DNA of 32,000 nt from Promethearchaeota archaeon (lineage in GTDB: Archaea > Asgardarchaeota > Lokiarchaeia > Sigyniarchaeales > Promethearchaeaceae): contig JAFGBS010000002.1 of NCBI GenBank assembly GCA_016933055.1, forward strand, positions 30,001-62,000, given 5' to 3'. How positions within the stretch are numbered: position 1 is the first letter of the stretch; each line of letters opens with the position of its first letter. Shown here piece after piece: positions 25,704-30,730 of this stretch. The notes below the pieces were generated by a model. It was not told where the DNA came from. It searched no databases and saw nothing but the letters and a program-made list of their open reading frames with translations. The translations under genes and the position numbers were made by a program.

Positions 25704-27500
25704 CTAATGGGTAAAATAGCAATATAATCCATTTTTCTGAGATTTTTGCATTTTTACATAACCATATCGTTCAAACTGCATGATAGTACCAGGCTTTACC
25801 GTTTTAATGGTATTTTCAGCCTTTCCATGAGTAATAACTCCCGTTGGTTTCAATACGTGCACCTTGACATTGGATTCATATGGTACCCATTGGATCTTTC
25901 GGATAGAAGGTTCTACTTTTTCGGTTAGGAATCTAGCTTCGAACTTTTTTGGATGGACAGATTGGATCTCTACTGTGAATAAGTCTTTTAATCGAAATCG
26001 CGTCCCTTCCGAAAATTTGGGATATCTTACTTTAGTCTCCTTCCGAGACATCTGTATTTTCGTGTCTAATCGGGAAATGTATACGGATGCTTTATGATCT
26101 TTGGTTTTTAACTCAATTAATCGAGTACCTCGTTCTTCATAACTGGGATGGAGTGAGGGAGTAGATACATATCGCTCTTTTGGAAGATTAATTATATCCA
26201 ATTTAACAGGATCTTCTACAAACCAATATCGATTGGCATCTGAATCAATCAATTTTGTATTTTTTGCGTAAATCCATTTTTCGGAAAAACTAATTCCGCT
26301 TTGGGACATTCCCAAGTCCAACAAGGACTCACGCAATGCATCTGGTTGGATTCCTCTTGCTTCAAGTGATTGTAATGACCAAGTTCGGGGATCCTTCCAA
26401 CTTTCATATTCCCCCGTGTTAATCTTCTGCCGAGCCAGTGTTTTACTCAGTATGAATTCGTTACTAAATCGCATTCTTCCGTACAATAAAATAGCTGCAG
26501 GTTCCCAGCCCATTAAATCCCAAATATAATGTTCCATGAATCCTTCTTTCTGCAAATCTGCCCCCCGGATTATATGAGTTACTCCCAATTCATGATCATC
26601 AATACCCCAGGAAAAATCCAAAATTGGCCATACTCTATATTTGGTTCCAATTCGGGGATGCTCTGCATCAGATATACGCATTATAACATGATCACGTAAT
26701 GCAGGATCCTTTTGATCCATCCCTGTATTTATCCGTACTACGGCTTCTCTTTCCTCGTAAGATCCATCTAACATGTTTTTCCAGCGATCTAAATGAACAT
26801 CTATGGACAATTCTTTGCATGGACACGGTTTCCCTACCTTTTTGTACTTCTCCCGAAACACAGTTGCGTCACAAGTACATACATACGCTTCCCCCTTCTG
26901 GATGAGATCTTGTGCATAATTCTGATATATCTTTACCCGATCGCTTTTGTATATTACGTTGTTTTTATCATAATCTATTCCAAGCCATTCCAAGCCTTCT
27001 CGAATCAAATCGTATGCTTCAGGTATAATGTATTTTGCATTAGGATCGTTTTCAATAGCATCTTTAGTGGCTCCAATTGTGTCATCGTATACTAAGAGAA
27101 GTCGTCCATTATAGCGTTTTACATATTCATCATTTAATACAAGCATTCGGGCATTCCCAATATGTAATGCTCCACTTGGATAAGGAGCTAAACGCATAAC
27201 CACTTTCTTGGCGTTTGTTACATTGGGTAATTCCGGTAGTTCTTTTATTTCTGGTTCACTTTTTTTCTGTTCTAATGCTTCAGGTTCAAGATGTTGAAGT
27301 TTTGTAAGTTGTGCGGATTTATCCCATGAGTTTACTTCTAGTACGATTTTATCAATATGGGATTTTATCTCTTCAGACCTTGACCGATATTCGGGAAAAT
27401 CTCTCATAATTTTACCAATTACGGCATTGGACCTAGCTTCTCCATATTTCACTGCATTTTTGAGTGCTTCGATTAGTATGCATTTCTCTACTTCATCCAT
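25704..27500 (-). CDS. gltX: Glutamate--tRNA ligase, archaeal type
   Basis: RLAPYPSGALHIGN (HIGH motif), DDHELGVTHIIRG, SWKDPR and C-terminal QFERYGY. Confidence 0.97.
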   Translation of the reverse strand: MDEVEKCILIEALKNAVKYGEARSNAVIGKIMRDFPEYRSRSEEIKSHIDKIVLEVNSWDKSAQLTKLQHLEPEALEQKKSEPEIKELPELPNVTNAKKVVMRLAPYPSGALHIGNARMLVLNDEYVKRYNGRLLLVYDDTIGATKDAIENDPNAKYIIPEAYDLIREGLEWLGIDYDKNNVIYKSDRVKIYQNYAQDLIQKGEAYVCTCDATVFREKYKKVGKPCPCKELSIDVHLDRWKNMLDGSYEEREAVVRINTGMDQKDPALRDHVIMRISDAEHPRIGTKYRVWPILDFSWGIDDHELGVTHIIRGADLQKEGFMEHYIWDLMGWEPAAILLYGRMRFSNEFILSKTLARQKINTGEYESWKDPRTWSLQSLEARGIQPDALRESLLDLGMSQSGISFSEKWIYAKNTKLIDSDANRYWFVEDPVKLDIINLPKERYVSTPSLHPSYEERGTRLIELKTKDHKASVYISRLDTKIQMSRKETKVRYPKFSEGTRFRLKDLFTVEIQSVHPKKFEARFLTEKVEPSIRKIQWVPYESNVKVHVLKPTGVITHGKAENTIKTVKPGTIMQFERYGYVKMQKSQKNGLYCYFTH

Positions 27501-27571
27501 ATTCTCTCAAATACTGCCGATAAGAAAAAATTTATTTTAATACGAATAAGATAAGACTGGTTAAGATTTCA

Positions 27572-28210
27572 ATGAATATTATTAAAAAATTATCAAATGA
27601 AATGCATGCAAGCAAAACGATAAAACCCAGTTTTAAATTAGTTCATCTTCTCCTTAGTCTTGTCATTTTTCAACAGGAGACTCAAGGTATTGGTCGTTAT
27701 CGATTGGAAAACGAATTATGTCTTTCAGAGGGAAAGGTCAGATCCCTCTTAAAGCACATGAAACAAAAACATTTGATAGAAGTGGACAACAAATTAAATG
27801 TACATGTCCTAACTGAAAAAGGATATTCCACTTTAATTGATATCACAAAGATCCTAACTCCTCCGAAAGAACCCAATTTTGAGATTACTCAAATAGTGAT
27901 CGGAGATTTTGTCAGATACAGTATTGTGCATAATGGTAGATCACGGTTAAAAACAGGATTAGAACAAAGGGATGAAGCCATAAAAATTGGGGGATCGGGA
28001 GCTACTTGTTTAATCATGAAAAATGGAGAATTCTTTTTTCCACCTACTCCCACTATGCAAAATACCTCAATTCCTGTTGCTATTGACCCTAATAATTTGA
28101 ATTATCCATTTTCTGAGTCAGATGTTTTGGTCTTAGGAACCGGAAAGTCACAATATCTTGCCAATTTAGCTGCTATCGCAGCAGCCTTAAGTTTAGCCCA
28201 CCATGTATAG
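27572..28210 (+). CDS. DUF4443/PH0730-like winged-helix protein
   Basis: IGRYRLENELCLSEGKVRSLL (HTH), VLTEKG wing, and GLEQRDEAIKIGGSGA C-terminal signature. Confidence 0.75.
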   Translation: MNIIKKLSNEMHASKTIKPSFKLVHLLLSLVIFQQETQGIGRYRLENELCLSEGKVRSLLKHMKQKHLIEVDNKLNVHVLTEKGYSTLIDITKILTPPKEPNFEITQIVIGDFVRYSIVHNGRSRLKTGLEQRDEAIKIGGSGATCLIMKNGEFFFPPTPTMQNTSIPVAIDPNNLNYPFSESDVLVLGTGKSQYLANLAAIAAALSLAHHV

Positions 28211-28237
28211 TACCAAAATTATTTAAATTTTCATCGA

Positions 28238-28245
28238 TTATATTT
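28238..28245 (+). promoter_or_regulatory. Candidate TATA box for a leaderless transcript starting near the Thr-rich uORF
   Basis: TTATATTT ends 26 nt before ATG 28272. Confidence 0.35.
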
Positions 28246-28271
28246 GCTGTATCTCGCATATGTGAAAAAAA

Positions 28272-28358
28272 ATGGTTGCGCCTGTCAATTATTCTATAAA
28301 TAAGAAATTTCTAAATTCGGTCAATTTGACCACAGCAACCATAACTACTACTATTTAG
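28272..28358 (+). CDS. Putative threonine-rich leader peptide upstream of thrS
   Basis: Hand translation MVAPVNYSINKKFLNSVNLTTATITTTI*; 6 Thr and 2 Ile in the last 9 sense codons; same strand and directly upstream of thrS. Confidence 0.65.
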   Translation: MVAPVNYSINKKFLNSVNLTTATITTTI

Positions 28359-28420
28359 TGGGTAACTCTCATACTTACTCTGACAGGCGTGAGATCGAGA
28401 GAGAGAGTTAATCTTTTATT
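28272..28420 (+). promoter_or_regulatory. Attenuator-like leader with competing helices and a T-tract
   Basis: Perfect 8-9 bp complementary pairs 28272-79/28335-42, 28279-87/28381-89 and 28363-70/28403-10, followed by ATCTTTTATT. Confidence 0.55.
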
Positions 28421-28627
28421 AAAAAATACGATGATGATAATTATAAAAATATTTTCTTGGTAAAGGCAACATGTGTACAGTAGAGATTAAATATTTTAAG
28501 AGATGTAGGCAAATAGGGTGACTAGATAATTTTAAATACATATTTTGAATATTTTCCTATAAGATTAGAAATATTCACTTGTTGTGATCTAAGCTTTTAT
28601 GAATGACGAAATTTTGTAGTTGATTAT

Positions 28628-30730
28628 ATGAAGATACTAATGATCCATTCCGATGGAGCCTTTATGGAAAAAAAAATGAAAGCTACATCCAGTCCTCAAG
28701 ATTTTAAGGAAAAAGACTTGAAAATTGATGGATTGGTGCTATTTGCTTTCGTATCTGTGGAAGATCAGGATATTTTTGATACGTCTGTTATTGCAAAACA
28801 AGGAGCCAATGTTATTGAAGATGCAATAGAGCTGATAGAGGGTTTCCCCGATAAGATCGAGGAACATAATAAAGAAATTCGTGAATTCAATGAAAAACTC
28901 GAAAAACGCAGGAAACTTGCAAAAGATAATCCTAAAATCCCTACTCCCACGGAAAGTCTGAAATCCGAGAAAAAGCTTATCATGGATCGAAAATTTTACA
29001 CAGTTGATTCCATTTTGGTATACCCTTGGGCACATTTGAGTCGATTCTTAAGTCAAGAAAAAGAGTCCATGGAGGTATGTCCAAAAATAGCATCTATTCT
29101 CAGCGATCGAGGATATAAAGCCGATTTTTCTCCATTCGGATGGTATAAATCCTTTAGCTTGAACTGTTTAGGCCATGAAGTCGCGGAAATGTATCGGGAT
29201 GTGAAATTATCCATCCTCGCAGATGAGGTTCGAGCAAACTCTGTGTTCAAGATACTGACAGAGGACGGTAAAGTATTGCATTTATATGATCCTAAAAAAG
29301 ACACTAAGAATAAAGATATTGTTCCCGATCGTTATAAAGGAAAGGAATGGAAGTCGTTCCAAGAATTGATCGCTGATGAGGTTCTTGGATCTGGGGCGAC
29401 ACAAAAAAAGGAACCCCCCCACATCAAGATGATGCAGAGTATGGAATTGGCAGATTTTGATGATGCCAGTGATGCAGGGAACCTTCGGTGGTATACAAAA
29501 GGAGTGTTGATGAAAAATCTTGTGAAGGATTACTTGGAGAATGTAATGATAGAAAACGGTGCTATCTATGCGGACACACCCGTCATGTACACGGTTAAGA
29601 ATAAGAAACTTACAGCTCAAACGGCAAGATTCCCTGCAAAAACGTATTGGGTACATTCTGGGAATAATCGTTACTTATTGCGATTTGCGAACGATTTTCT
29701 CTTATTTAATATGTTTTCTCAAATGCAAATAAGGGAAGAAAGTTTACCATTGGGTGTATATGAATGGGAGACTTATTCATTCAGACGAGAGCAAAAAGGA
29801 GAATTATCCGGTTTAAGAAGACTACGAGCTTTTGTGATGCCAGATCTTCATACATTATGTAAAGATTTACCTCAGTCCGTTAAAGAGTTCAAAAAAGAAT
29901 TCGAAATGGTACAGAGAATCCTTAAGGACCTTGGAATAAATTCTCACATAGTTTTTAGAGCAACAGAACAATTCTGGGAGGAAAATAACGATTGGATTAT
30001 TAAGAGCATTAAGGAATGGGGTCAACCTGCAATCTTTGAGTTATGGCCCGAACGTTATTATTACTTCATCTTGAAGTTTGAGTGGCCCGTAATTGATTCT
30101 CAAGGCAAATCTGCAACGCTTTCTACCATCCAGATCGATGTAGAATCAAGCCAAGATTATATCGAGCAGTTTGGTGAGAAACGTCAAAAGTATAATATAA
30201 TATACACATCAAAAGATGGTAGTACGGGTCATCCGATTATTTTACATACCAGCCCCTCTGGGGCGTTCTGCCGAATCATCTGGGCATTGCTGGAATCTAA
30301 TGAAAAATATAAAGATGAGATAGTTACAGGATTTAAAACATGGCTCTCACCGGTACAAGTGCGAGTTATTCCAATTACGGATAAAGACAAGAGATATGCC
30401 GAAAAAATTATGATAAAACTAAATGATGTGAAAATTCGAGCAGATTATGATGATCGGGATGAGAAAATAGGCAAAAAAATACGCTCAGCGGAAGTAGAAT
30501 GGATCCCATATACAATTATTGTCGGATCAAAGGAACGGCAGAACAATACAATTTCAGTACGGAAACGATTAATCGGTGAAAAACTGGTAGACAATAAGAC
30601 TAACGAACAAATTCAAGATATAAAATTAGCAGATTTGAAAAAAATTATTAACAAGGAACTTAAGGGTTTCCCACGTAAAGAACTTCCCATACCCTTCCGG
30701 TACTACAGTAAAAAAATCAGTTTTCGATAA
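28628..30730 (+). CDS. thrS: Threonine--tRNA ligase, archaeal type with N-terminal DTD-like editing domain
   Basis: MKILMIHSD, YPWAHLS, PFGWYK (editing domain); FRREQKGELSGLRRLRAFVMPDLH (motif 2); C-terminal anticodon domain PVQVRVIP. Confidence 0.97.
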   Translation: MKILMIHSDGAFMEKKMKATSSPQDFKEKDLKIDGLVLFAFVSVEDQDIFDTSVIAKQGANVIEDAIELIEGFPDKIEEHNKEIREFNEKLEKRRKLAKDNPKIPTPTESLKSEKKLIMDRKFYTVDSILVYPWAHLSRFLSQEKESMEVCPKIASILSDRGYKADFSPFGWYKSFSLNCLGHEVAEMYRDVKLSILADEVRANSVFKILTEDGKVLHLYDPKKDTKNKDIVPDRYKGKEWKSFQELIADEVLGSGATQKKEPPHIKMMQSMELADFDDASDAGNLRWYTKGVLMKNLVKDYLENVMIENGAIYADTPVMYTVKNKKLTAQTARFPAKTYWVHSGNNRYLLRFANDFLLFNMFSQMQIREESLPLGVYEWETYSFRREQKGELSGLRRLRAFVMPDLHTLCKDLPQSVKEFKKEFEMVQRILKDLGINSHIVFRATEQFWEENNDWIIKSIKEWGQPAIFELWPERYYYFILKFEWPVIDSQGKSATLSTIQIDVESSQDYIEQFGEKRQKYNIIYTSKDGSTGHPIILHTSPSGAFCRIIWALLESNEKYKDEIVTGFKTWLSPVQVRVIPITDKDKRYAEKIMIKLNDVKIRADYDDRDEKIGKKIRSAEVEWIPYTIIVGSKERQNNTISVRKRLIGEKLVDNKTNEQIQDIKLADLKKIINKELKGFPRKELPIPFRYYSKKISFR

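Follow-up and report, generated by a model that had tools for sequence, protein, structure and literature searches.

A conserved threonine-rich leader ORF upstream of thrS in an Asgard archaeon as a candidate leader-peptide attenuator

Leader-peptide attenuation is a textbook mechanism of bacteria, and pheM-pheST represents a case in which attenuation of a synthetase operon depends on a leader peptide with many residues of the cognate amino acid. The gene of threonyl-tRNA synthetase (ThrRS) is itself known to be regulated by RNA elements, with thrS and thrZ of Bacillus subtilis being controlled by a T-box riboswitch and thrS of E. coli by a translational operator to which ThrRS binds. Furthermore, mycobacterial leaderless short ORFs encoding polycysteine act as amino-acid-responsive attenuators of downstream genes, according to the accessible part of a preprint (bioRxiv 10.1101/834739). 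No report on leader-peptide attenuation in archaea was found in the searchable full-text literature, which yielded bacterial work only. This agrees with an earlier note on the DNA considered here, which regarded the mechanism as not established for archaeal aminoacyl-tRNA synthetase (aaRS) genes.

The locus described in the following belongs to a 32,000-nt stretch of DNA (contig C28), referred to as the window, from a genome assembly of 3.76 Mb and 35% GC (G000). Homologues of its ThrRS bear Promethearchaeota/Lokiarchaeota names, which places the organism among the Loki-type Asgard archaea. A short ORF precedes thrS on the same strand, and by sequence comparison it is a real, conserved and thrS-linked Thr-rich leader ORF with a predicted attenuator-like switch of three helices. 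Such an element is judged to be of a known kind, found in a domain of life where this kind is undescribed. The genes and reading frames of the locus are as follows:

25704-27500, minus strand: GluRS gene, divergent, farther upstream than the DUF4443 gene.
27572-28210, plus strand: gene of a DUF4443/PH0730-like winged-helix protein of 212 aa, the upstream neighbour of the thrS leader.
28272-28358, plus strand: leader ORF (uORF) of 28 codons, translated as MVAPVNYSINKKFLNSVNLTTATITTTI*, the frame of which is open in homologues.
28329-28352, plus strand: Thr-codon run ACC ACA GCA ACC ATA ACT ACT ACT, which contains segment b of the RNA helices listed below.
28628-30730, plus strand: thrS, archaeal-type threonyl-tRNA synthetase (Pfam PF08915, PF00587, PF03129).

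The product of 28628-30730 matches the archaea-specific editing domain tRNA-Thr_ED as well as tRNA-synt_2b and HGTP_anticodon in Pfam and is accordingly an archaeal-type ThrRS. Thus, the ORF with its translation and terminal Thr codons as well as the identity of the next gene, both claimed from the letters alone, were borne out by the sequence and the Pfam matches, respectively. A gap of 269 nt lies between the stop of the leader ORF and the start of thrS. The upstream neighbour combines a PH0730-like/CggR-like winged-helix N-terminus with a DUF4443 domain and could be a regulator of the GluRS or the ThrRS gene; the DUF4443 gene also precedes the leader in L032, a contig of a congener. Contigs identical to the leader and the thrS start (window 28100-28800) were encountered in a hot-springs metagenome of 2017 (run X2). 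As the likely source of the window is a sediment metagenome of 2021, the same strain-level sequence occurs in two studies, and due to this identity the leader from X2 adds no variation to the comparison.

The leader ORF closes with the codons ACC ACA GCA ACC ATA ACT ACT ACT ATT TAG (28329-28358), and Thr accounts for 6 of its last 10 codons. In a census of all ORFs of 8-60 codons, covering six frames of the whole genome (99,064 ORFs, 13,610 of them intergenic), it was the sole ORF featuring at least six Thr in a window of nine codons, which supports the assertion that the enrichment goes beyond chance. Only one copy of the leader region exists in G000. A cluster of cognate codons in a short leader ORF, by which the attenuator class is recognized, is hence present at this locus. 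Intergenic small ORFs rich in A, D, E, G, N, P, R or V had no meaningful gene downstream, and the idea that leaders with cognate codons could likewise precede other synthetase genes found no backing in G000, where no convincing one was detected upstream of 16 other aaRS-family genes. On contig C17 of the same genome, a Leu/Phe-rich ORF of 42 codons (MKFGLKEDYNGWLLLLFLLFLVRMEREFLLRKFEKNSVSYSL) is located 248-119 nt upstream of pheS (pheS start 682632).

With thrL as well as trpL, hisL, pheL and leuL, the Asgard leader has the short ORF with tandem cognate codons in common. It differs from thrL in its archaeal host, in its putative control of a synthetase instead of a biosynthetic operon, in a run composed of Thr only and not of Thr plus Ile, in the distance of ~270 nt to the gene and in the termination machinery. 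A cognate-rich leader peptide before an aminoacyl-tRNA synthetase operon is shared with E. coli pheM-pheST, whereas amino acid, domain of life and RNA topology are different and no homology was detected. T-box riboswitches and the E. coli operator act on the same gene, the expression of which increases with low tRNA-Thr charging or low ThrRS. However, these are untranslated RNAs binding tRNA or ThrRS, whereas the Asgard element keeps a frame that is predicted to be translated, and the T-box features one specifier codon instead of several tandem in-frame Thr codons. Runs of codons for a single amino acid at the transcript start connect the leader to the mycobacterial polycysteine ORFs, which are bacterial and Cys-responsive and for which a start-codon arm with two partners is not described in the accessible part of that preprint. 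In the Rfam comparison (cmscan of 27500-29000 at E ≤ 10), neither Thr_leader (RF00506) nor the T-box riboswitch (RF00230) was matched, and only four chance-level matches were listed.

In nine leaders, which represent about four lineages within a single Lokiarchaeia-type family, an ATG-initiated ORF of 26-29 codons closes with a run of Thr. These leaders comprise G000, G001/L002, L031 and L032 at the genus level, L033, L084 and L086 as the L033 type, and L034 and L085 as single representatives. G001 is the sole other species of the genus among 60 relatives, its ThrRS being 83% identical and its leader peptide, MVAPVIFNKSDNSMELVSLTTATTTTTYL, being encoded at a distance to thrS as in G000. The genus-level contigs L031 and L032 contain the leaders MVAPVNNKKCDISMDLVSLTTATTTTTIL and MVAPVNYYKCNISMELVSLTTATTTTTLF, and more diverged ones accompany ThrRS sequences of 68% identity in L033 (MITSVIQIQFRNLINFYAKTAVTTTIVF) and L034 (MIESRLSNFIFIIIIFSTTEMTTTTTSST). 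Additional leaders were obtained from metagenomes by means of an arm pattern, i.e., a DNA pattern of the two helix arms alone, which required neither the ORF nor any Thr content. Its nine matches consisted of three AT-rich leaders, all of them with a Thr-run ORF, namely MITSVNQVQFRNLINFSTQTAVTTTIYF (L086, followed by thrS), MITSVIQIRNFINFCTKTAVTTANYF (L084) and MFTSVIIINLRFRVFSSVETVVTTTTYF (L085), and six GC-rich chance matches; over genome contigs, the pattern gave only five matches, which were bacterial and due to chance. Likewise, a covariance model of five sequences, comprising the helix between arms a and d alone and built without L033, detected L033 with 40 bits (E = 1.5e-6). The gene downstream is thrS in all contigs that reach that far (7/7, of nine leader contigs), despite an upstream neighbour varying by lineage between the DUF4443 gene, a DinB_2 gene and a divergent FTCD gene on the other strand.

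The way in which these ORFs diverge points to a translated frame. They end in ...TTATxTTTxx, ...TAVTTTxxF, ...TVVTTTTYF or ...TTEMTTTTTSST, with the middle of the peptide diverging freely and nothing outside the Thr run being conserved. In spite of this AT-rich, divergent interior, in which about two stops per 28 codons are expected, the ORF frame is without an in-frame stop in 9/9 leaders, whereas, with one exception, 1-4 stops interrupt the other two frames. Throughout, the ACN repeats share the frame of the ATG, and the stop follows within 1-3 codons. Among the genus-level leaders, the run varies by changes (ACA/ACT, ACT/ACA/ACC and ATA to ACT) that are synonymous or replace Ile by Thr. The synonymous variation of Thr codons that the earlier note had proposed to look for is therefore found, in the form of ACA/ACT/ACC exchanges plus one Ile-to-Thr change.

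The distribution of the element is narrow. Orthologues of thrS are present in 61/61 relatives, most of those of Loki type having a thrS upstream region of 30-140 nt without the element. A search of 151 genomes of the order with the covariance model recovered it in G000 and G001 only; two matches of ~31 bits were rejected as spurious, one falling within a coding gene, the other coinciding with the beginning of a 524-aa ORF. No leader was detected in loci L035-L037, L077-L081 and the other thrS loci examined. It is missing from seven other metagenomic ThrRS relatives (63-66% identity), and a ThrRS-seeded protein scan of JGI metagenome contigs gave no confirmed relative. The anticipated Thr-rich uORF upstream of orthologous thrS genes thus exists in nine leaders but is confined to few lineages of one family. 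A mini-ORF, LLEFITIITTTNI, located 75-33 nt upstream of thrS in L018 (G053, another family), was judged to be probably due to chance, as it has a TTG start, no ATG, three Thr codons and no relatives for comparison. In G022 (G022:C1:3202923-3204781), the match to thrS consists of two separate pieces, the first of which contains an in-frame TGA; a frameshift, a misassembly or a disrupted gene may account for this.

In the genus-level alignment, GC-rich conserved blocks stand out amid AT-rich spacer. These blocks are predicted to form competing RNA helices around the ORF, the strands of which are listed in transcript order:

28272-28287, plus strand: arm a, AUGGUUGCGCCUGUCA, 5' strand of both competing helices, including the start codon.
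28335-28342, plus strand: segment b, GCAACCAU, within the Thr run, pairing with AUGGUUGC of arm a.
28362-28370, plus strand: segment c, GUAACUCUC, 5' strand of the outer stem of a terminator-like hairpin, 3 nt past the uORF stop.
28381-28396, plus strand: arm d, UGACAGGCGUGAGAUC, 3' partner of arm a (helix P1, antiterminator-like), located inside the c:e hairpin.
28403-28411, plus strand: segment e, GAGAGUUAA, pairing with segment c in the minimum free energy (MFE) fold.
28412-28420, plus strand: U-rich tract, UCUUUUAUU, directly after segment e.

The a:d helix was predicted by RNAalifold with a length of 14 bp, UGGUUGCGCCUGUC (28273-28286) pairing with GACAGGCGU..GAGAUC (28382-28397), and encloses the whole ORF. 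Its arms are spaced by 93-96 nt in all lineages. In the nine sequences, a:d pairing is realized in 90% of cells compared to 27-46% with slid partners, in an alignment that is model-fitted and has the L085 row aligned to segment b. Two compensatory pairs, C:G to U:A and G:C to A:U, were observed, and the arm of L033 is aligned as GGCAGACGUG by the covariance model; the covariation statistics are thin because only about four lineages are known. The competing a:b duplex amounts to -16.3 kcal/mol in G000, compared to -19.9 kcal/mol for a:d, and reaches -13 to -16 kcal/mol in each lineage vs. -5 to -8 kcal/mol in shuffled sequences (p ≤ 0.007 each). It is formed by different sequences, i.e., by AUGGUUGC with GCAACCAU in the genus, UCACG.CUGUC with GACAG.UGUGA in the L033 type, UUCACG.UCUG with CAG.CGUGA in L085 and AGUCA..UCUGUC with GACAGA..UGACU in L034. 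Similarly, four unrelated sequence pairs form the c:e stem: UAACUCUC with GAGAGUUA in the genus, UUUCCC:GGGAAG in the L033 type, AUCCCCA:UGGGGAU in L085 and GUCCU:AGGAC in L034. The hairpin is followed by UCUUUUAUU in G000, which is weak (T4), by T5-T6 in the congeners, by U6AUUU in L034 and by UUAAUUUU in L085, and the L033-type leaders have no U run directly after it.

As segment b lies within the Thr run, the Thr codons could in principle have arisen as a side effect of pairing. Complementarity to arm a indeed dictates part of the Thr and Val codons early in the run (ACA, GUG, AC). For the run 3' of segment b, this explanation was rejected because 3-5 consecutive Thr codons located there are unpaired; the ACN-rich stretch is mostly unpaired in the folds.

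The comparison with classical attenuators can therefore be extended to the RNA. Mutually exclusive helices are common to both, one of them being a hairpin that U residues follow (in the Asgard element, in most lineages). In both, the regulatory codons are situated within or beside a strand of the first helix. In contrast to the classical order 1-2-3-4, the strands of the Asgard leader are arranged as 2-1-3-4, with arm a located upstream of the regulatory codons and containing the start codon. The proposed switch would keep the 1:2 / 2:3 / 3:4 logic of the bacterial attenuators.

A stalled ribosome was mimicked in silico by excluding a 30-nt footprint, centred on a Thr codon in the middle of the run, from pairing in the eight complete leaders. 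Without a ribosome, the MFE fold combined a:b with the c/d/e hairpin in 6/8 of them, a:d being the MFE helix even then in two genus-level sequences. Masking of the Thr codons led to the a:d helix in 7/8 leaders, with the hairpin persisting despite the mask in L086. When the footprint was moved along the ORF, a:d appeared almost only with the A site in the last 10-14 codons, i.e., where the Thr codons are situated. In this thermodynamic model, a ribosome at the stop codon likewise favours a:d, and stalling and normal passage must therefore differ kinetically. Mutually exclusive helices which are shifted by a stalled ribosome, a further mark of the attenuator class, were thus found in silico only.

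A translated, Thr-sensing cis-regulatory leader before thrS, i.e., a leader-peptide switch of the attenuator kind, is the reading favoured here, with a probability of roughly 0.6; confidence in termination as the specific read-out is lower. More tentatively, and at odds slightly short of even, the leader may be a ribosome-mediated attenuator in which the pioneer ribosome on the Thr leader decides on the passage past hairpin and U tract into thrS. Both a:b and a:d would sequester the AUG, and reading of the ORF would consequently require a ribosome to load while the RNA is still being made. At high levels of Thr-tRNA, this ribosome would reach the stop codon, and segment b would emerge behind it and capture arm a. 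After release of the ribosome, c, d and e would fold as the hairpin before the U tract, and transcription would end or the RNA be cut. With scarce Thr-tRNA, the ribosome would wait on the Thr codons and its footprint would cover segment b, leaving arm a free to pair with d upon emergence of the latter, which in turn would prevent formation of the hairpin. With the hairpin pre-empted, RNA polymerase would cross the ~270-nt spacer into thrS and add to the supply from a proximal promoter. The net effect would be an increase of ThrRS whenever charging of tRNA-Thr falls. Coupling of transcription and translation, on which such a mechanism depends, was observed in archaea (French et al. 2007, cited in PMC7858274). 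The sequence features suggest that the leader has a promoter, that its transcript would end at the U tract and that transcription may continue into thrS. The signals concerned are:

28216-28232, plus strand: promoter-like block AAATTATTTAAATTTTC with the TATA core TTTAAAT at 28222-28228, identical in four genus-level sequences.
28262-28265, plus strand: SD-like GTGA, its first nucleotide 10 nt before the uORF ATG; GTGAAGAT in congeners.
28540-28568, plus strand: conserved block ATATTTTGAATATTTTCCTATAAGATTAG, -88 to -60 from the thrS start.
28586-28618, plus strand: conserved block TGATCTAAGCTTTTATGAATGACGAAATTTTGT, -42 to -10 from the thrS start.

The flanks of the block at 28216-28232 diverge among the four genus-level sequences. 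Judging from the usual archaeal distance between TATA box and start, the leader transcript would begin ~17-20 nt before the uORF ATG. The TATA-like box that had been placed at leaderless distance, TTATATTT, is unconserved in the congeners; the conserved one is TTTAAAT at 28222-28228, and instead of a leaderless message it predicts a 5' UTR of ~17-20 nt carrying the SD-like GTGA. Across 1,734 long ORFs of G000, GTGA/GGTGA peaks at -14 to -10 before the start codons, which indicates SD-led mRNAs, and a TATA-like signal peaks at -30 to -28 from the ATG, which indicates leaderless mRNAs. Hence, this archaeon appears to use both modes of translation initiation. Scans for bacterial-type promoters and terminators and for tRNAs gave nothing relevant. 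Two metatranscriptome runs of the source study gave no reads on the locus, and a marine-sediment metatranscriptome (X5) contained a fraction of 0.20 of the words of leader plus spacer of L086; these observations are not taken to weigh in either direction.

In front of thrS itself, identity between G000 and G001 amounts to 70-82% in the two proximal blocks and to ~45-50% in the spacer, and a motif, TGAATATTTT / ATATTCTGA, is shared with the distant L033 and L034 lineages, at about -88. The region 28540-28618 is thus probably a thrS-proximal promoter and/or an element of the 5' UTR. The possible promoter element TTTTATGA that the earlier note had pointed out at 28595-28602 is present and belongs to a block conserved in the genus, and the accompanying caveat of an independent thrS promoter is strengthened by the two conserved blocks. 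In many relatives, GTGAT is found at -13 to -9 from the thrS ATG, which argues for a leadered thrS mRNA. The blocks may constitute a second promoter or a 5' UTR element working together with the leader; equally, in view of their promoter-like conservation, a promoter of thrS itself may account for most or all of its transcription.

The latter is the core of the best surviving rival explanation, in which the leader would form a small transcription unit of its own, driven by a separate promoter, closed by a constitutive terminator and yielding a short structured RNA and/or a 28-residue peptide, with thrS being expressed from the proximal promoter only. The unit would then exert no cis control on thrS, and its product might act in trans. 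Besides the promoter-like blocks just before thrS, the poorly conserved spacer of 244-336 nt which separates leader and thrS across the lineages is in agreement with this explanation, and a plain terminator could explain the hairpin that T5-T6 runs follow in several lineages. Products acting in trans are moreover on record for bacterial attenuators, from which the sRNA rnTrpL and the leader peptide peTrpL are derived (PMC7968998, PMC7298713). Nevertheless, a separate unit would not be expected to adjoin thrS in every case while the upstream neighbour changes, nor to be enriched in precisely the cognate codon; its peptide is unconserved outside the Thr run, and an arm a with two partners would be pointless in a plain small gene. 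We therefore consider it unlikely. The linkage to thrS, the cognate codons, the frame open in 9/9 leaders and the two-partner arm argue against this explanation as well as against that of an untranslated RNA, which is treated below.

The weakest link of the attenuator model is termination, as archaeal termination has no known hairpin requirement. Archaeal transcription ends at U-rich tracts, aided by aCPSF1, with a need for or modulation by hairpins not being known (PMC7515710). A translated sensor of Thr-tRNA might have another output, with the position of the ribosome governing either cleavage or stability of the RNA, e.g., through access of aCPSF1 or further RNases, or the interference of distal and proximal promoter. 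The U tract being weak or absent in some lineages would suit this alternative, and so would the long spacer with a likely second promoter and the reliance of archaea on U-rich tracts and aCPSF1 cleavage instead of hairpins (PMC7515710). In most lineages, however, a conserved hairpin around arm d abuts on a U-rich tract, which corresponds to the classic geometry of a terminator, and no sequence feature is specific to a cleavage site, so that such an output is regarded as rather improbable.

A further alternative is an untranslated RNA which senses tRNA-Thr or ThrRS directly, by T-box-like ACN repeats or as a ThrRS operator, with the ORF being incidental: the long closing helix a:d around a domain of constant size (arm spacing of 93-96 nt), the largely unpaired ACN-rich stretch and the regulation of bacterial thrS genes by both such RNA mechanisms would fit, but ATG and open frame are retained in 9/9 leaders of about four lineages despite the divergent AT-rich interior, the ACN repeats always follow the ATG frame with a stop within 1-3 codons, the SD-like GTGA shows the spacing typical of G000, and no T-box or other Rfam family is matched at E ≤ 10, all of which makes this reading improbable.

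With regard to the biology of these archaea, the Thr-sensing leader-peptide switch preferred here would have several implications if it holds true. Archaea would sense their metabolism through the position of a ribosome on nascent RNA, and archaeal aminoacyl-tRNA synthetase genes would be tunable to the charging of tRNA. Moreover, RNA structures such as hairpins would be able to gate archaeal termination or 3'-end formation. As the element is compact, with ~150 nt and clear predictions for mutants, it would render regulatory coupling in archaea directly testable. Finally, amino-acid sensing by coupled transcription and translation would be at work in the archaeal lineage closest to eukaryotes.
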